Positions 1,210-11,789 of a DNA stretch of 11,820 bases are shown here, piece by piece (positions within the stretch are counted from its first letter, which is position 1; the number at the start of each line of letters is the position of its first letter). Made by a program: the position numbers and the translations under genes. The stretch covers positions 1-11,820 of the forward strand of contig JALGVI010000086.1 of the NCBI GenBank assembly GCA_029838215.1, read 5' to 3'. This stretch comes from Candidatus Helarchaeota archaeon (GTDB lineage Archaea; Asgardarchaeota; Lokiarchaeia; Helarchaeales; RDOG01). The notes under the pieces are model-generated. The model was given only the letters and a program-made list of their open reading frames with translations. It made no database searches and was not told where the DNA came from.

Positions 1210-1250
1210 TTGAGAACTTATTGCCGTTTATCTAAATCTATTAACAAGAA

Positions 1251-1275
1251 AATGAAAAAATCACTTTTTTTCTAA
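1251..1275. terminator. Putative bidirectional terminator between the convergent ABC permease and selD genes
   Basis: GAAAAAA-TCACT-TTTTTTC inverted repeat gives a T7 tract on + and a T6 tract on -. The same 12-mer TCACTTTTTTTC recurs at 9449-9460 after another stop codon. Confidence 0.45.
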
Positions 1276-1282
1276 TATTTTA

Positions 1283-1360
1283 CTTGGTGGTGCCATGTTG
1301 CGTGAGGCACGAAGTTTAAAAATGGTTGCAATCTTTGCCATTTTATCATCACTCACCAAG
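1283..1360 (-). promoter_or_regulatory. Candidate SECIS element in the selD 3'UTR (eukaryote/Lokiarchaeota-like, non-canonical core)
   Basis: Begins 3 nt after the selD stop. Outer stem CUUGGUG(1360-1354)/CACCAAG(1289-1283). AUGA at 1349-1346, followed by stem AAAAUGG/CCAUUUU with an apical CAAAGAUUG segment. The strand opposite AUGA reads UAAA rather than NGAN. Second hairpin GUGCC/GGCAC (1310-1289). Pairing found by eye, not folded computationally. Confidence 0.55.
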
Positions 1361-1362
1361 AG

Positions 1363-2400
1363 TCAAGGATATTTATCGATTTCGATAAACATCAGGTCTT
1401 TTTTAAGATGAACCTTTCCCGTTCCCTTGACGACCGAACCAATCTTCCAGAATGGTATTCCAATACGTGAAAACTCCTGTTCCAAAGCTCCTAATTGTTC
1501 TTCCGGAATCGATAAAAGCATTCCACCTGCCGTTTCCGAAGCATTTCCTTCATTAAGTCCGTGAACAAACAATTCCGAGAGTTCCAACGCACCTTTTATG
1601 ACTGGAAGCTCGCTTATTTTGATATCCACCTGACTCATTTTTGCGATGTTTAGGGCATGTCCTCGAATACCAAAACCCGTGACATCCGTGGCGGCACTTA
1701 CGTTCAAGTTTTCGAGTGCAATTGCGACTTTTTTATTACTTGTCAGCAAGATTTGTACTGCAAGGTCAACAGCACGTATTGCTTCCTTTCTAGGAAGAAC
1801 CTCGAATACCATTTCCTGAATGCTTTCTTCTTCTTTCAACGCCCTGTATGCTGCCATGCACGATTGGATTCCGAGTGGTTTTGTGAGAACCAACACGTCG
1901 CCAGGTCTTGCACCATGACTATATATGACCCTACTTGGATGCGACACGCCCGTGCATGCACCACCAATGATTGGCCATGGATTCTTAATCGTATGCCCAC
2001 CGATGACAGGAGCACCTTCAGCGTTACAAAAGTCCACGAATCCCCGTAACATTTGCTTCGCAATTGTTTTTGGCATGTCTTCAGGAAATGCCATTATTAC
2101 GAGAACGCTGATGACGTCATGGACTCCCATTGCATAGAGATCATTAAGGGAATTACAAGCACTGAGTTTCCCCTGAATCACGGGGTCATCGTGAAGTGGC
2201 GTGAAAGCATCTATCGTTTGCACCAAGACCATTTCATCGGAAATCTTTAATACTGCGGCATCATCACCCAGCTTAGACAAGATCTTCCGGTTCTCTATTG
2301 TTTCCATGCCTTCAAGCAAATTCTCGAGATCAATGCGGTCAATCTTACATGCTCATCCGTGAAAGGTTACTTTCTTCGTTAGACGATACTCATCTTCCAT
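1363..2400 (-). CDS. selD: Selenophosphate synthetase (selenide, water dikinase), selenocysteine-containing, 345 aa
   Basis: Manual translation from ATG 2400 gives MEDEYRLTKKVTFHG[TGA 2355-2353]ACKIDRIDLENLLEGMETIEN..., in frame with the tracked 1363..2319 ORF. TGA is codon 16 of the catalytic U/C-x-C-K motif. Downstream SelD motifs are present: GDDAAV, TIDAFTP, NSLNDLYAMG, GGHT, GDVLVLTKPLG and TDVTGFG. Confidence 0.95.
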
Positions 2401-2504: not shown

Positions 2505-3476
2505 TCATGACGAAAATTCTCTTCCGTTCTCACGGATGAATTCAATGATTTTTTTCTCTTTTGCCATTCCGGTTCTTGCTCCAACCTGCAGACAATTCAA
2601 TGCTCCCGCGGCATTTGCAAAAAGAGCAATCTCATCAAGGTCCCATCCCTTCAAATATCCCACTCCAAATGCTGCATTAAATGCATCTCCTGCTCCCGTC
2701 ACGTCTTTGGGCTGAATCTTAAAACCAGAAATGAATTTCTCCTTGATCTTATCATTTTCTCTAAAAAAAATCCTGCACCCATCCTCTCCTAGAGTTACCA
2801 CGATTACTTTTAAATTCACTTTCTTCTGCATCAATGCTCGAGTGGCTTCAATTGGATTGTTGATGCCTGTCAATTCCATTATTCCAAGCTTCTGCGGTAC
2901 TAAAATATCAACAAGATCCAAGAAATTCAGGATCTCATCTGCTCCATTATTGACAATTACTTGTTTCTCAAGATCAAATGAAATCAGTATCTCTGGATTA
3001 TTATCGCGTGCCTGCTTCACGAGATAACTCGAAACATCCCCATGAATATAAGAAGTATGAAGAAGACGGGCTCGCGCTATCTTGTCAAAATCCGCCTGAT
3101 TAAAATCATCGGGAACACTCACGCGTGTCTTGATAACGTACGGCGACTGAATGATGACTTTTTCACCAACCCGATTGATCAAGATGAATGTTTCTGCCGT
3201 TTTCTGCCCTTTCTTAATTCTAGTGAGTGACGTGTCTATCCCTTCGGTACTGAGATCTTTTAACAAGATCTGTCCTGCCTCATCATCTCCAAAAGCACCG
3301 ATGAATCCTGCTTGAACTCCCAATCTGCTTACTTGAGTCAAGTAATTACCAATCACTCCTCCACTGGTCAAGATATATTCTGAGGCATCGACTTTTTCGT
3401 CCGAACTTGGAAATCGGTCAATGAGAAGAACGTGATCCAAATTACAGCTCCCAATGCCGAAAATTTCAATCATCAT
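2505..3476 (-). CDS. PfkB/ribokinase-family carbohydrate kinase
   Basis: N-terminal 'GIGSCNLD' and 'GGVIGN' motifs, plus 'VVTLGEDG' and the PfkB signature 'DVTGAGDAFNAAF' (2705-2685). Start is probably ATG 3476 or 3473, after an SD-like GGGTG, rather than GTG 3482. Substrate cannot be assigned. Confidence 0.92.
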   Translation of the reverse strand: MMIEIFGIGSCNLDHVLLIDRFPSSDEKVDASEYILTSGGVIGNYLTQVSRLGVQAGFIGAFGDDEAGQILLKDLSTEGIDTSLTRIKKGQKTAETFILINRVGEKVIIQSPYVIKTRVSVPDDFNQADFDKIARARLLHTSYIHGDVSSYLVKQARDNNPEILISFDLEKQVIVNNGADEILNFLDLVDILVPQKLGIMELTGINNPIEATRALMQKKVNLKVIVVTLGEDGCRIFFRENDKIKEKFISGFKIQPKDVTGAGDAFNAAFGVGYLKGWDLDEIALFANAAGALNCLQVGARTGMAKEKKIIEFIRENGREFSS

Positions 3477-3569
3477 GTCCACCTTTTCAATTACGAATCA
3501 TTTCTAAACAGGATTTAAAAAAACATTCAGATTATCATGGATGAGTTTCGAATTAAATGATTCTGCAGG

Positions 3570-3583: not shown

Positions 3584-4312
3584 TCATAAACTAATTATTC
3601 GATTTCCACACCTATTGCACGCAATGATAAAGCCTAATTCTATTCCTTCGACCATGTCTTTCGTTAATACTTGCCCGCAAAATGGACATAGTTTCTCTGA
3701 TGCGTCCTGTTCACTCTCTTCTTCCTTTGATGCCACGTATATCGGTTTTGGCGTGATAACATCTGGCACGACATTCTCGTTGACAACATCCTTTTTTTTC
3801 GAGTCAATGTTCAAAGAAATGACGTTCAAGACGCCTTTATCTGTAAATGGCAGGTCTTTATCATCTTTTGTATCAGCGATGGATTTCTCAATTCTCTTTG
3901 AAGATACTTTTTCTTCAATCTTGATAATTTCCTTTTCTGAAGATTTTTCTCTCGCAATTTTGACTGTCTTCGGTTTTGGCATTGACATGATTGCATTTTT
4001 TAATTCGGCACTCGCCTCCGTCTCGTTTTTAACATTTACTGCCTTTTTCGTCTTCAATTTTTTATGAGTGAATTGCAATGTATCGGGTAACTCATCTTTC
4101 GGGCTGGGTTGTTGCTCTTTCTTCGCCTTGGCTTTTTTTTCAACTTTTCGGGTCTTTGTTTTTATTGCGGCTTCCTCTTCTTCTTCCGCGGCTTCCTCAA
4201 TTGAGATCCCAAAGATATCTTGGAAGAGCTCTTCATTTTTTTTGCGAACGATCTGCTCTTGTTCTTCTTCTAAATCATTTTCATTGGGTTTTTCCTTTCC
4301 AGTTCGAACCAT
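3584..4312 (-). CDS. Hypothetical protein: long K/E-rich low-complexity region with a C-terminal Zn ribbon
   Basis: About 242 aa from ATG 4312 (track uses TTG 4318). Charged, disorder-like N-terminal ~200 aa. C-terminal CPFCG-x18-CNRCG. Confidence 0.75.
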   Translation of the reverse strand: MVRTGKEKPNENDLEEEQEQIVRKKNEELFQDIFGISIEEAAEEEEEAAIKTKTRKVEKKAKAKKEQQPSPKDELPDTLQFTHKKLKTKKAVNVKNETEASAELKNAIMSMPKPKTVKIAREKSSEKEIIKIEEKVSSKRIEKSIADTKDDKDLPFTDKGVLNVISLNIDSKKKDVVNENVVPDVITPKPIYVASKEEESEQDASEKLCPFCGQVLTKDMVEGIELGFIIACNRCGNRIISL

Positions 4313-4596
4313 TTTCAACCAATAATCATATCGAAATGATGTTTCTTAAAAATTATTATTTGCAGGAAGTGATAATATTTAGAGAACACGCGCTTTTTAT
4401 TGAGTTTTTCACGCAAACTTCATTGATCTCAAATAAGAGGTGCGTGGTAATGTTTCACGAATGCTTTCAACAACAACATGTTTTCATCATGGAATTAAAT
4501 CGAAAAGAATTGGAACAATGCGCAAGGAGATTTTTCATAAAAAGAACCATCACGATAGAAATGACCGATCTTTTCTCATGTTCATCTGGATTAAAC

Positions 4597-5100
4597 TCAT
4601 GAAAAATAGGTTATGGAAGACTTATCGAAATCTCGAACCATTTGGATCCGCATGGATGGCTTGATGTGGAAATTCGCAGAGAGGTGACGAAAACCATGAA
4701 AAAACACGTTAATTCCTTGGCTTGCCATGATAAATGCTGGATGATCTTCACTCTTGTATCTCTTTTTAGTAATATGAAGAGTTACTTGCTGGCAGATCCG
4801 CTCGTTTAAAAATCCAAGAGAATGCACGTATTCATGGAGAAGAACGTGATACAAATATGCAATTAAAATATCTTCAGAATGACTCTGTTCAGCATGGAGA
4901 ATCCTCAATGCCGTGATGTTTAATAAAATCATCGTTCCACCTGAAAAATACATCCCACCGATAAAACCATTATTGGAGTAACCCATCTCAGCAAGCCCTA
5001 GCGTTAGTCCAGCTCGATGTCTATGGATGACGTTTTCGACATCTCGTTTTACTTCTTCAAAGATATCTGGTATTTGCTTGATTAATTCTTGAAATTCCAT
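4597..5100 (-). CDS. Small HEXXH (zincin-like) putative metallopeptidase, conserved archaeal-type hypothetical protein
   Basis: 'HVLLHEYVHSLGFLNE' (HEYVH at 4836-4822), 'HRAGLTLGLAEMG' and C-terminal 'DFDKSSITY' resemble an archaeal hypothetical family I recall (not verified). Start is probably ATG 5100 (167 aa), because a TATA box lies inside the track's upstream extension. Confidence 0.8.
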   Translation of the reverse strand: MEFQELIKQIPDIFEEVKRDVENVIHRHRAGLTLGLAEMGYSNNGFIGGMYFSGGTMILLNITALRILHAEQSHSEDILIAYLYHVLLHEYVHSLGFLNERICQQVTLHITKKRYKSEDHPAFIMASQGINVFFHGFRHLSANFHIKPSMRIQMVRDFDKSSITYFS

Positions 5101-5123
5101 CACGTTAATAAAAAATGCGTTCC

Positions 5124-5131
5124 ATATATAA
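5124..5131 (-). promoter_or_regulatory. Archaeal TATA box candidate for the HEXXH gene (leaderless or short-leader mRNA)
   Basis: TTATATAT centred about 27 nt upstream of ATG 5100. No clear SD before that ATG. Confidence 0.45.
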
Positions 5132-5160
5132 TGACTGGGCACTAACAACATGCTTGCAAA

Positions 5161-6057: not shown

Positions 6058-7536
6058 TCACGCATTTCGTAATAGGTAATTTTTATATTCAATGGCGTTT
6101 TTTAGGGCTGAAGCCATGGTTGCCACGTCATTCATTACCGGAATGCCGACAGCACGAAATCGATTTTCGAGCTCATTACGTTTTGCCACGATTTCCGCAT
6201 CACAAAATGTCTGTTCGGATATTATAATGACTGGCTTTTCGATTTTCCTTATATTCCGCACCAATTGTTTTACATTTGATTCCATCATCGCAGCAAAGTC
6301 CATCTTATTATCGGGATTCAGTTTTGTCATGAGCATCGTGTTCATTATCCCCCAATCCAAGCCCGGCTCAAATGTCATTATATCGATTCCGTCCATTTTA
6401 TCAAATATTCTGATGACTTCCAAGACCTTCTTTATGTTGAACATGTGAATGTTCATGTCCACCGGATTGCGCAATAACGTGCCAACTTCACCTATGACTT
6501 CTTTTATTCTCTCCATGTCTTCACGGTTTAAGTCAGGGAAACTCAACCCCATTTTTGAGCATAAATCTGCCCAGTAGACGTTGTTTCCACCGCCTCCCAA
6601 GACTGCTCCCAAATTTGGGCCAATCTTCATGAGTTTGCCATGTTCTTGAAGGTTAGAGATTAAAAGTGCCGTGTGAAGAAGGTCTCTTCCGCCTTCTTCT
6701 ACCAATATTGCCCCTGATTGCTTGAAAGCCCCTTTTATCACTCGACTATCTCCCGAAATGGAGCCAGTATGGCTGAGAATGGATCTCTTGCCCACTTGAG
6801 TTCTGCCTCCCTGCCAGACGATCACTGGTTTTTTCTTCGTCGTCTCTCGAAGAATCCTGAAATAATTACGACCCTGCTCGAGAGTCTTGAATCCTTCAAG
6901 ATATTCTATTATGAGTTTCGTTTCTATATCATCTTTAAAATATTCCAATAATTCATCTGCGTTTATATCGGCACCGTTGCCATACGATACTGCCTTGTTG
7001 AATTTCAAGCCAATTCCATTTCCATATATGATGAACGCATCAGCATTTCCTCCTGATTGCGAAATTATGGAAACGCTTCCTCCCCACTCATCACCTGACT
7101 TGAGTCCCTGGTTGAATGAGATTCGTCGTTTTGGCACGCAAAGACCGATACAATTCGGTCCAAGCAATCGAACTCCTCCTTTTCGTGCTATCTCGACAAA
7201 ACGTTCTTCATCTTCTTTTTGACCTATTTCCGAAAACCCCGAAGTGAAACAACATACTAATTTCACTTTCTTCTCGACGCAATCTTCAAGAGCTTTAAAT
7301 GCGTGTTTTTTAGGCACGGCAATGATGCAATAATCCACGGGGTGTGGAACTGCCTGAAGATTTGGATACGTTTTGATTCCATTCATTTCTTCATATTTTG
7401 GGTTGATTGGATAGATTTTATCCTTTGGATAGTTAGCGGCTAAAAGAGACTGAAGAAAAGAAGAGCCTCCTGAAAAATATCCCGGGCTCGCACCAATAAT
7501 TGCAATTCCTTCCGGTTCAAACAATGAGTCATCCAT
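6058..7536 (-). CDS. Acyl-CoA synthetase (NDP-forming) alpha-subunit-like, CoA-binding protein
   Basis: CoA-binding fold 'IAIIGAS...YPINPK', plus 'LLGPNCIG', 'SQSGG', 'VSYGN', phospho-His loop 'SHTGS' (His codon 6771-6769, about residue 256) and 'NPVD'. No ATP-grasp (beta) domain. ATG 7536 preferred over GTG 7545. Confidence 0.88.
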   Translation of the reverse strand: MDDSLFEPEGIAIIGASPGYFSGGSSFLQSLLAANYPKDKIYPINPKYEEMNGIKTYPNLQAVPHPVDYCIIAVPKKHAFKALEDCVEKKVKLVCCFTSGFSEIGQKEDEERFVEIARKGGVRLLGPNCIGLCVPKRRISFNQGLKSGDEWGGSVSIISQSGGNADAFIIYGNGIGLKFNKAVSYGNGADINADELLEYFKDDIETKLIIEYLEGFKTLEQGRNYFRILRETTKKKPVIVWQGGRTQVGKRSILSHTGSISGDSRVIKGAFKQSGAILVEEGGRDLLHTALLISNLQEHGKLMKIGPNLGAVLGGGGNNVYWADLCSKMGLSFPDLNREDMERIKEVIGEVGTLLRNPVDMNIHMFNIKKVLEVIRIFDKMDGIDIMTFEPGLDWGIMNTMLMTKLNPDNKMDFAAMMESNVKQLVRNIRKIEKPVIIISEQTFCDAEIVAKRNELENRFRAVGIPVMNDVATMASALKNAIEYKNYLLRNA

Positions 7537-7613
7537 GTATATCACGTCTCGGATTTACTTAAGATTGTCTGTGATCTACTTGATACTTTTCCATGATTTG
7601 AATTAAGAAGATT

Positions 7614-8161: not shown

Positions 8162-8241
8162 TGCTTCGGAGATGTTCTGATTTCTTGTATATGTGTTTTT
8201 TCAATCATTGCTTGTAGAATAAGAAAAAATTGCAAGACGTG

Positions 8242-9417
8242 ATGTCGATGACTCAAGCCGATCCAACCGAAACTGAGAAAACGGAAAAATATTATAAAAA
8301 AATTCGAGACGCCCTATTCATGCCTAGGGCTTTGAAAGAAAGTATCCAACTTCTAAAGGCGTGGTATTCACCTGAAGAAGCCCGTGTGGTTTCTGTTTTT
8401 AAGACCCCCATGATGGTTTCGATGCCCATTGAAAAAATTGCCGCAAAGACCAAGATGCCCGAAGAAAAAGTCAAGGAAATCGTTGAACGACTCGTGAAGA
8501 AGGGTCTTCTTTATAATTTCGTTAATAAAAAGGATGAGAATAAGCTCTATTATGCTCTTGCCTTCTTGTTTCCAGGTTTATTCGAATGGTACTTTGCATC
8601 TCCATTCGTTTCAATTGACGAAAAACGAAATGCCGCAAAGTTATTTGAAAAACTCGAACCCGTAATGGGTGCAATGATGGCATCGAAATATGAAACCGCA
8701 CGCGTGGCACCTGCAATGGATGCAAGGATTAAAACAATCAAGGTTGAAGAACCCGTCGAAGTAGGACAAAGTCAAGTCTTGCTTTTCGAAGATGTCGTCA
8801 AAATACTGGAGAATAGCTGGAGTATTGCAGTCATGCCTTGTCCTTGTAGGGTTTTCCACGGTACAATCCTTCGAGATGGTTGCGATAAACCAATTGATGT
8901 TTGCATAAATCTTAATTCTGTCTCTGAATATGTTCATCGGGTCGGAATCGGTCGCAAGATTTCAATCGAAGAAGCAAAAGCCATCCTTCACATGGCAGAA
9001 AAAGCGGGTTTGGTACATCTCGTGAATAATCTTTCAACCAAGCATTCTTTCATATGTAATTGTTGTTCCGACTGTTGTGGCTTCCTGAGCGTGGTGAACA
9101 AATTCAAGTTGTATGATGGTGTTGTCGCCCGATCTGATTATCGTCCTCGAGTGGATCTGGAAACTTGCATCAAGTGTGCAAAGTGCGTGAAAATTTGTCC
9201 TGTTGGCGCATTGCACATTGTCTACGGAAATAAAGAAGATCTATCCGATACCAAAATCATTGTTCGGGATGAATTATGCTTGGGATGTGGCGTGTGTGCT
9301 GTCAACTGCCCGAAACAAGCCATCAATCTCGAAAAAATAAAACAAACCCGTGCCGAAGACCTTGAAGATCAACTTTGGAAAGGCGGGATGCGCACGCAAA
9401 AAGAACGCCTCTTTTGA
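8242..9417 (+). CDS. 4Fe-4S dicluster domain protein with N-terminal winged-HTH-like region and extra Cys clusters
   Basis: C-terminal CIKCAKCVKICP and CLGCGVCAVNCP ferredoxin motifs. Central MPCPCR..C..C and CNCCSDCCG motifs. N-terminal 'IEKIAAKTKMPEEKVKEIVERLVKKGLL' is wHTH-like. Start is ATG 8242 or 8248 (track uses TTG 8230). Confidence 0.88.
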   Translation: MSMTQADPTETEKTEKYYKKIRDALFMPRALKESIQLLKAWYSPEEARVVSVFKTPMMVSMPIEKIAAKTKMPEEKVKEIVERLVKKGLLYNFVNKKDENKLYYALAFLFPGLFEWYFASPFVSIDEKRNAAKLFEKLEPVMGAMMASKYETARVAPAMDARIKTIKVEEPVEVGQSQVLLFEDVVKILENSWSIAVMPCPCRVFHGTILRDGCDKPIDVCINLNSVSEYVHRVGIGRKISIEEAKAILHMAEKAGLVHLVNNLSTKHSFICNCCSDCCGFLSVVNKFKLYDGVVARSDYRPRVDLETCIKCAKCVKICPVGALHIVYGNKEDLSDTKIIVRDELCLGCGVCAVNCPKQAINLEKIKQTRAEDLEDQLWKGGMRTQKERLF

Positions 9418-11132: not shown

Positions 11133-11789
11133 ATGGTTAGTAACATTTTATTCGATTATCGGGCTTGGTATTTCCTTATCGGTACTCTCTTATTTTTGGT
11201 TCCACGATTCATGAATTCCATTAGTGTCTTCGGACTTGAGCCAAACGAAACACCCCGAAACAACACTTCAACATTCATGTATTTCATTGTCGGTGCAATT
11301 TTTTACATGTTCATGATCGAAGACCTAATTACTGCGTTTTTGTATACAGGAAGTGCTGCTGCAAGTGCCATTCTACTTGAAATTGTCCCGGTTGTCCTGA
11401 TCTTTCTTATTGGATTTGTCTTTTCCTCCGAAGCGTTCGTCAAACCAACTAAAAATACTCTAATTACATTGTTAATCATTAGCGTGATTGGTCTTCCGCT
11501 TTCGTTCCTATTATTTCACAACACGTTTATTGACAATCTCTTTTCGTATTCTTATGTTTTAGGTCCTGTCATTGCAATCGTAATTGCTGCCGCTGGTGGA
11601 TATGGAATTCATAGAATACTTCGAAAGAAGTTGCCCGATTTTAACCAAGACCTTTGGAGCGTCAATTCTCTTTGGAAAATAACAAATAACCCCTATTTAT
11701 TAGGCACTATTATAATCGTATCTCTCCTTGAAATCTTCATGCAATTAAACGGCTATTCATTCGCCTATCCACTCGTTTATCTCCTCTAA
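11133..11789 (+). CDS. Hypothetical integral membrane protein (about 6 TM)
   Basis: 218 aa, multiple hydrophobic helices. ATG lies 1 nt after the upstream TAA, with GGAGG at 11121-11125, indicating translational coupling. Confidence 0.8.
   Translation: MVSNILFDYRAWYFLIGTLLFLVPRFMNSISVFGLEPNETPRNNTSTFMYFIVGAIFYMFMIEDLITAFLYTGSAAASAILLEIVPVVLIFLIGFVFSSEAFVKPTKNTLITLLIISVIGLPLSFLLFHNTFIDNLFSYSYVLGPVIAIVIAAAGGYGIHRILRKKLPDFNQDLWSVNSLWKITNNPYLLGTIIIVSLLEIFMQLNGYSFAYPLVYLL

Follow-up and report, generated by a model that had tools for sequence, protein, structure and literature searches.

A selenocysteine-type selD gene in a Helarchaeota archaeon and a candidate three-way junction in its SECIS element

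Sec-type selenophosphate synthetase (SelD or SPS) is already documented in Asgard archaea. Mariotti et al. (2016, PMC4989117) describe Loki-like SPS genes that have a single UGA, at the selenocysteine (Sec) position, and a distinct, type-II-like SECIS element, and Huang et al. (2024, PMC11227280) report that i) Sec-SelD occurs in more than 90% of the Asgard archaea that use Sec and is the most widespread Asgard selenoprotein; ii) 85.9% of Lokiarchaeia/Helarchaeales genomes use Sec; iii) multiple selD copies are found in Loki and Thor lineages; and iv) some hdrA, frhD, and frhA genes have AUGA...AA cores. According to a 2026 review, SelD is one of the families that almost every Sec-using archaeon has. 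The Sec-type selD gene that we describe here adds to the known Asgard Sec-SelDs.

Our gene resembles the published Asgard Sec-SelDs in its single catalytic-site UGA, in a eukaryote-like SECIS element located in the 3′UTR near the stop codon, and in an archaeal/eukaryal-type machinery, but differs from them in that the elements of this selD and of its order-level relatives are type I hairpins, here with an AUGA...AA core. The SelDs of Methanococcales and Methanopyrus provide the closest curated model (NF010705) and share both the Sec residue in the N-terminal loop and the location of the SECIS in the 3′UTR; their SECIS elements, however, are described in PMC4989117 and PMC11227280 as having a GAA...A bulge and a GC-rich stem, as against the AUGA...[G/A]A quartet type seen here. 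Human SEPHS2 (Sec60) and SEPHS1 (Thr29; PDB 3fd5, 9hjt) have the same fold and the same motifs, and SEPHS2, itself a selenoprotein that its own synthesis requires, has a kink-turn SECIS in its 3′UTR; but eukaryotes require SBP2, which PMC11227280 reports to be absent from Asgard genomes, and the eukaryotic SEPHS2 SECIS is a type II element with a GA...GA quartet, unlike the element of our selD. E. coli SelD (Cys17, Lys20; PDB 3u0o) belongs to the same family and has the same catalytic loop position, but it uses Cys instead of Sec, and bacterial Sec genes carry an in-frame SECIS that is bound by SelB, rather than one in the 3′UTR.

The window, by which we mean the whole 11,820-nt stretch of DNA analysed (contig JALGVI010000086.1 of assembly GCA_029838215.1, here also C55), belongs to a genome of 3.62 Mb in 170 contigs with 38.6% GC and a completeness of about 94%. 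The archaeal marker CGI-121, a KEOPS subunit, is present, and the gelsolin domains of this genome, which are absent from 14 control genomes, fit its Asgard (Helarchaeota) assignment. Our main reading, to which we give a probability of roughly 0.93, is that 2400-1363 on the minus strand is the only SelD/SPS gene found in the assembly, and that the UGA at its codon 16 is decoded as Sec under the direction of a type I SECIS element set in a three-way junction in the 3′UTR.

The selD reading frame and its in-frame UGA

When TGA is translated as U, selD is a single 345-codon frame on the minus strand, running from ATG 2400-2398 to a TGA stop codon at 1365-1363; its sole internal stop is the TGA at 2355-2353, codon 16, and the product reads MEDEYRLTKKVTFHG-U-ACKIDR... 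An ordinary ORF list gives just a 318-codon part of this frame, from TTG 2319 and without the SelD N-terminus, as a sequence-only reading of the same DNA had noticed; the upstream extension proposed there, to ATG 2400 with the TGA falling at the catalytic residue, proved exact in both coordinates and sequence when we read the frame again. The features of the gene are as follows.

1363..2400, minus strand: selD coding sequence, 345 codons plus the TGA stop, with predicted Sec at codon 16 (profile matches, SPS1 alignment)
2353..2355, minus strand: in-frame UGA, predicted to be read as Sec in HG-U-ACK (TGA in relatives, Cys in the distant homologues L012 and L013)
2398..2400, minus strand: predicted true start ATG (the N-terminus aligns with relatives, and with the SelD profile from position 3)

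The identification of the 345-aa translation as SelD, made at first from the sequence alone, is borne out by the NCBIfam SelD profile NF010705, which the full-length translation matches at 363.9 bits (cut-off 291) with residues 2-341 on profile positions 3-345, and by TIGR00476 (251.9 bits, cut-off 125). The two domains of the PurM-like fold are found as PF00586 (AIRS) at residues 45-152 and PF02769 (AIRS_C) at 165-329. The best relative of solved structure is human SPS1 (E 9e-49), with U16 aligned to Thr29 and K19 to Lys32, and the catalytic loop of the product accordingly has Sec followed by Lys three residues on (HG-U-ACK). The GDDAAV, QTxD, NxLxDLYAMG, and ATDxTGFG columns are conserved between the product and SPS1, and we take these motifs, as the literature does, to serve in ATP and metal binding; the U16/Thr29 position is the site known to hold Sec in SPS2 and Cys17 (with Lys20) in E. 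coli SelD. Judged by its sequence, the gene product is SelD, a selenophosphate synthetase whose enzyme activity is predicted. AAGGAAG lies 8-14 nt upstream of the ATG, an AT-rich spacer of 104 nt separates pfkB from selD, and the N-terminus of the product (M..EYRLTK) is alignable with those of relatives. Since ThiL (294 bits) is the one remaining AIR-synthase-like gene of the genome that shows any resemblance, selD appears to be single copy, and of the Sec type, in this 94%-complete assembly.

Forty related genomes of the same family, order, and class were searched for selD. A match was found in 38, each with exactly one TGA within it, and the extra tandem selD copies of many sister-family genomes likewise have one TGA apiece; in the genes extracted from relatives the TGA always falls in HG-U-[S/A/N]CK, and it is preserved in about 50 selD copies with protein identities of 33-49%. 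A related-locus search in genome contigs returned only L012 and L013, distant homologues (44-46% identity) with Cys at the UGA position (HGCSCK), which we used both as the Cys side of a Sec/Cys comparison and as negative controls for SECIS elements. On sequence grounds, Cys in these two and UGA in selD form a classical Sec/Cys pair. The in-frame TGA is therefore non-random, because it occupies the same alignment position in relatives and stands opposite Cys in two distant homologues; selD thus has the mark of a selenoprotein gene, an in-frame UGA that faces the Cys of homologues and is conserved among orthologues.

UGA is nonetheless a normal stop codon in this organism and has not been globally reassigned, because TGA terminates 585 of the 1525 open frames of at least 300 codons in the genome (38%) as well as six genes of the window: selD, pfkB (2505-3482), and the genes at 3584-4318, 4597-5151, 6058-7545, and 8230-9417. 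The sequence-only reading had rested the same point on these six genes, and all six do end in TGA. The window also holds ORFs at 3584-4318 (minus strand), 4597-5151 (minus strand), and 11133-11789 (plus strand), of 244, 184, and 218 codons, for which Pfam gave nothing at E 1e-3; two of them had been read as a Zn-ribbon protein and an HEXXH protein from the sequence alone.

The public gene calls for this selD are 305, 314, and 326 aa long and all start downstream of the UGA, the kind of mis-start that had been foreseen for automated annotation; the 305-aa call is on contig JALGVI010000086.1 itself, and the 314-aa product is on record exactly. Every public call for this selD is N-terminally truncated and mis-annotated, and because the calls drop the catalytic N-terminus, the organism appears to have a defective SelD.

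Structure of the selD SECIS element

The selD SECIS lies 13 nt past the stop codon, and the RNA element is 1,006 nt downstream of the UGA. Its parts, with the sequence that follows it, are listed here.

1283..1360, minus strand: whole SECIS region in the 3′UTR, predicted three-way junction (minimum-energy fold, descriptor match, identical in a diverged strain)
1354..1360, minus strand: 5′ strand of helix 1, CUUGGUG, pairing with CACCAAG at 1283-1289 (7-bp closing helix)
1346..1349, minus strand: 5′ side of the SECIS core, AUGA (sequence, descriptor)
1338..1344, minus strand: 5′ strand of helix 2, AAAAUGG, pairing with CCAUUUU at 1319-1325 (fold, descriptor)
1326..1337, minus strand: apical loop CAAAGAUUGCAA, 12 nt, A-rich, with unpaired AAA (fold, descriptor)
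1316..1317, minus strand: 3′ side of the SECIS core, AA (sequence, descriptor)
1290..1310, minus strand: third helix, a GUGCC/GGCAC hairpin with an 11-nt loop, between the 3′ core and helix 1 (fold)
1249..1260, minus strand: T6 and T4 runs 3′ of the SECIS (sequence)

In the sense of the mRNA, the 3′UTR runs from the stop codon through CU, CUUGGUG, AG UG, AUGA, U, and AAAAUGG to CAAAGAUUGCAA, and onward through CCAUUUU, U, AA, ACUUC, GUGCC...GGCAC, and CACCAAG to the T-runs. The minimum-energy structure given by RNAfold for the selD 3′UTR is the three-way fold, an outer stem with two hairpins. Archaeal transcription terminates at oligo-T, and the T6 and T4 runs are probably such a terminator, as predicted from the sequence.

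The type I eSECIS-like model of Huang et al. (2024) has a 5′-GA...[G/A]A-3′ core, an upper stem of 7-15 bp with no more than 2 mismatches, an apical loop of 8-20 nt, and no ministem. The selD element agrees with this model in its GA...AA core, its stem of 7 bp (8 positions if a U-U is counted), and its 12-nt loop, the 7-bp upper stem being at the short end of the published range; its AUGA...AA core, of kink-turn type, contrasts with the GA found on the 3′ side of most SECIS elements. It does not agree with the type II model (a ministem of 2-8 bp above a 4-12-nt bulge), no ministem being predicted. Nor could we find a Methanococcus-type archaeal SECIS (GAA...A bulge, GC-rich lower stem, short GC upper stem) in 1210-1362, and Rfam returned no SECIS or other meaningful family, either for the window at gathering thresholds or in a permissive scan of 1100-2500.

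We also considered a canonical two-helix SECIS with a lower stem formed by GUGAG (1356-1352) and CUCAC (1306-1302), a pairing that is incompatible with the third hairpin and that agrees with the lower stem G[A/U]G...C[U/A]C described in PMC11227280. We prefer the three-way fold, itself a structural prediction, over this two-helix fold because six other elements of the genome and the covarying elements of a sister family, both described below, show the three-way layout.

SECIS elements across the genome and its relatives

The 3′UTRs of mvhD (contig C110), hdrA (C144), and vhuU (C49) carry elements of selD-like design in unrelated sequences: AUGA, 1 nt, a stem of 7-8 bp, a loop of 11-12 nt starting G(U)AAA, 1 nt, GA, a small hairpin, and an outer closing helix. 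For a genome-wide survey we used a structural descriptor consisting of UGA, 1 nt, a stem of 7-9 bp, a loop of 10-13 nt that has AAA within its first five positions, 1 nt, and GA or AA. The two strands of the genome contain 23 matches, whereas the reversed genome gives 3 and genomes shuffled locally give 6-9; seven of the 23 are located at or just past the stop codons of UGA-containing ORFs, namely selD, mvhD (C110), hdrA (C144), vhuU (C49), the hdrA of C12, which had no part in the design of the descriptor, and the two small ORFs on C111 and C132 described below. The chance of a match per 100-nt stretch is about 1e-4 to 2.5e-4, a somewhat optimistic figure because the descriptor was fixed after the selD element was known. 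The selD mRNA is therefore predicted to carry a SECIS element, and other UGA-containing frames that we examined carry elements like it. A 3′ hairpin of at least 5 bp together with a closing helix of at least 5 bp is present in all seven of these elements as against 2 of the 16 other descriptor matches; the three-way layout occurs at 18.5% of random positions when the thresholds are 4 and 5 bp.

The descriptor with shuffled controls was adopted because a covariance model failed to discriminate: built from the selD SECIS elements of five relatives, it scored the selD element at 12.5 bits (E 0.8), among similar chance matches, and a genome scan with it gave nothing significant, the AT-rich primary sequence having dominated the model. 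A MAFFT alignment of eight SECIS hairpins from different genes came out of register and was abandoned.

Several other loci touched by the survey deserve mention in their own right. The best SECIS candidate of the di-Sec hdrA on C12 (C12:26233-26170, minus strand) overlaps the stop codon and reads A-UGA, C, CUUCGUGA, a 10-nt loop, UCAUGAAG, U, and AA, ending with a CCCCU/AGGGG hairpin and an 8-bp outer closing helix. At C111:41416-41856 on the plus strand (L063:217-657) an ORF of 146 codons contains two in-frame TGAs side by side (..PDAGC-U-U-DPFEDR..), and its stop codon makes the AUGA of a SECIS three-way junction; the ORF is without a Pfam match and absent among published archaeal selenoprotein families, and its homologues, found in 35 of 41 related genomes, almost all have two TGAs. 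A 95-codon predicted membrane protein at C132:51-335, plus strand (L064), again without a Pfam match, has an in-frame TGA in U-P-L-C and a SECIS three-way junction about 30 nt past its stop, at about 368-403; homologues with an in-frame TGA were found only in the close relatives G004 (one) and G001 (two), and we regard this ORF as a candidate small membrane selenoprotein. In vhuU (C49:15831), the C12 hdrA (C12:26233), and the C111 ORF (C111:41854), the termination codon lies inside the recoding signal, since the stop UGA and the A preceding it form the AUGA of the SECIS core.

Under a relaxed rule, nearly all Sec-type selD genes in the class have a SECIS starting 4-48 nt past the stop codon, typically 11-15 nt. 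The order-level relatives G004-G006 have type I selD hairpins, the sister family has type II selD SECIS elements with a ministem, and AA cores occur in G004, G008, G023, and G036, three members of the sister family being among those with such cores. The Cys-type homologues L012 and L013 gave no SECIS-like match. In G001, the only genome of the same family, selD (L015, on C11) keeps the UGA, and we were unable to find a type I or type II SECIS within 400 nt under relaxed rules; an outer GCGGC/GCCGC helix and a second hairpin are present in its 3′UTR.

In the sister family (f4, L020-L043), many genomes have two tandem Sec-type selD genes, each with its own type II three-way junction, and the selD SECIS elements of this family lend themselves to a count of covariation. 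In an alignment of 24 of them, under a four-helix structure, 94.7% of cells are paired and two-sided changes occur in 12 of 20 pairs, values that were reached by none of 500 shuffles and that collapse in slid controls; compensatory changes affect 3 of 5 pairs in the outer helix and 4 of 5 in the 3′ hairpin, and all four helices are supported.

A k-junction is a kink-turn whose non-bulged strand carries an additional, third helix (Wang et al. 2014, PMC4005666). At the level of secondary structure the selD SECIS fits this topology: helix 1 is followed by the loop, G-A/A-A, and helix 2, and the third hairpin separates the 3′ AA from helix 1. The main texts of Mariotti et al. (2016, PMC4989117) and Huang et al. 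(2024, PMC11227280) make no mention of a three-way junction, and a literature search for SECIS elements with a k-junction or three-way junction returned nothing relevant, figures and supplements aside. We therefore offer only tentatively, and at somewhat less than even odds, the proposal that the Sec signal of selD would be a three-way k-junction, common to six other SECIS elements of this genome and to selD SECIS elements across the class and previously undescribed, and that the selD genes of this order would use a type I form (here with A-A in place of the quartet's canonical A-G) rather than the published type II. Little about the gene itself is new; the RNA architecture may be moderately so, and the junction may just lack a prior description.

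Selenocysteine machinery, alternative explanations, and selenium economy

The sequence-only reading had expected Sec machinery elsewhere in the genome, and had reserved the verdict of pseudogene for a genome that lacked tRNA-Sec, SepSecS, and a SelB/EFSec factor. All three are present in the approximately 94% complete assembly, which thus holds tRNA-Sec, SepSecS, EFSec, and SelD together with a PSTK-like gene. EFSec, SepSecS, and tRNA-Sec form a co-oriented cluster on C165 (C165:46149-48994; L062 250-3095; tRNA at L001:1501-1612), in which the EFSec and SepSecS genes overlap by 4 nt and tRNA-Sec lies 36 nt downstream. EFSec scores 283 bits with TIGR00475 (cut-off 242) and matches Pfam aSelB_III, and SepSecS scores 498 bits with TIGR03531. 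The tRNA-Sec (Rfam RF01852, 52.9 bits, cut-off 47) has a UCA anticodon, a 9-bp acceptor stem, and a 4-bp T stem, and the 25-nt insertion in its anticodon loop is most likely an intron at or near 37/38; ARAGORN missed this intron-bearing gene, which the Rfam tRNA-Sec model recovered. The published Lokiarchaeum tRNA-Sec is arranged differently: its intron, of 31 nt, interrupts the T loop, and the gene is 6 kb away from EFSec and on the other strand. The PSTK-like kinase, on C112, has TIGR03574 as its best family over the full length, at 161 bits, which is under the 290.5-bit cut-off. As to other users of the machinery, two UGAs at Cys positions are found in each of hdrA and mvhD on C110, the hdrA genes of C144 and C12 likewise contain two UGAs apiece, and vhuU on C49 is a UGA-containing, Sec-type gene; a peroxiredoxin gene on C74 is truncated by the contig end and falls outside a Sec/Cys reading.

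From these parts we infer Sec insertion, with the selD RNA as its signal, and autoregulation by selenium supply. Sec-tRNA(Sec) would be made by SerRS, PSTK, and SepSecS from the selenophosphate that SelD itself provides, and EFSec, which delivers it, would be recruited with its Sec-tRNA(Sec) through the 3′UTR SECIS to decode the UGA at 2355-2353. Because the synthesis of SelD would then need selenophosphate made by SelD, the loop would be one of positive feedback that collapses under selenium starvation. The notion of such feedback is a long-standing one for Sec-containing SelD/SPS2 and for archaeal SelD.

The same locus can be explained in other ways. Were the UGA simply to terminate translation, the working product would be a truncated SelD starting at the ATT of codon 20, at ATG 2307, or at TTG 2319, or the gene would be a pseudogene; this has on its side the public calls of 305, 314, and 326 aa that begin past the UGA and the ORF list that begins at TTG 2319, but throughout the class the protein sequence is conserved on both sides of the UGA, over 15 codons ahead of it and 4 behind (EYRLT..V..HG-U-xCK), this stretch matches the SelD profile from position 3, and the shortened product would be without the catalytic loop of Sec/Cys and Lys. 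Decay, moreover, would not leave a single stop always at the same place, and the frame intact before and after it, in some 50 copies at 33-49% identity, so that we consider termination or a pseudogene very improbable. An error of sequencing or assembly, the TGA standing for a Cys codon (TGC or TGT), was named as a danger by the sequence-only reading and is a general possibility in any metagenome-assembled genome, with nothing further to recommend it here. Two independent assemblies, GCA_054384155.1 and GCA_054383755.1, hold the same locus with identical ATG, TGA, and 3′UTR, and one of them differs at about 11 other selD coding sites and so comes from a distinguishable strain; since both carry the identical TGA, error is excluded as far as assemblies show, and as every related genome with a selD match has its TGA at this position, we give error hardly any weight at all.

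Mammalian cells can insert Cys at UGA by means of the Sec machinery under selenium deficiency. By that precedent, the selD UGA might be read through as Cys or Trp, by near-cognate decoding or by misinsertion through the Sec machinery, in the bulk or even the whole of the protein made, for example under selenium shortage; indeed, a cell whose only selD is of the Sec type must restart Sec synthesis after selenium starvation. Against this, a complete Sec machinery and a SECIS element are present, other selenoprotein genes use the same signal, and we see no sign of a dedicated non-Sec mechanism, which leaves read-through as Cys or Trp a slim prospect. Sec insertion at codon 16 is the reading that we retain, and the site-specific recoding proposed from the sequence alone finds support in the conserved UGA, the Cys homologues, the machinery, and the SECIS element.

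Taken as a Sec-containing protein of 345 aa, and considered alongside the clustered machinery and the hdrA, mvhD, and vhuU genes of Sec type, this SelD points to a working selenium economy in an Asgard lineage. It would be one more lineage in which synthesis of the selenium donor falls to an enzyme that itself needs that donor, and no Cys-type backup was found in the 94% complete genome. If confirmed, the three-way SECIS would bear on how kink-turn SECIS elements are recognized in archaea that lack SBP2, and on the origin of the eukaryotic SECIS.
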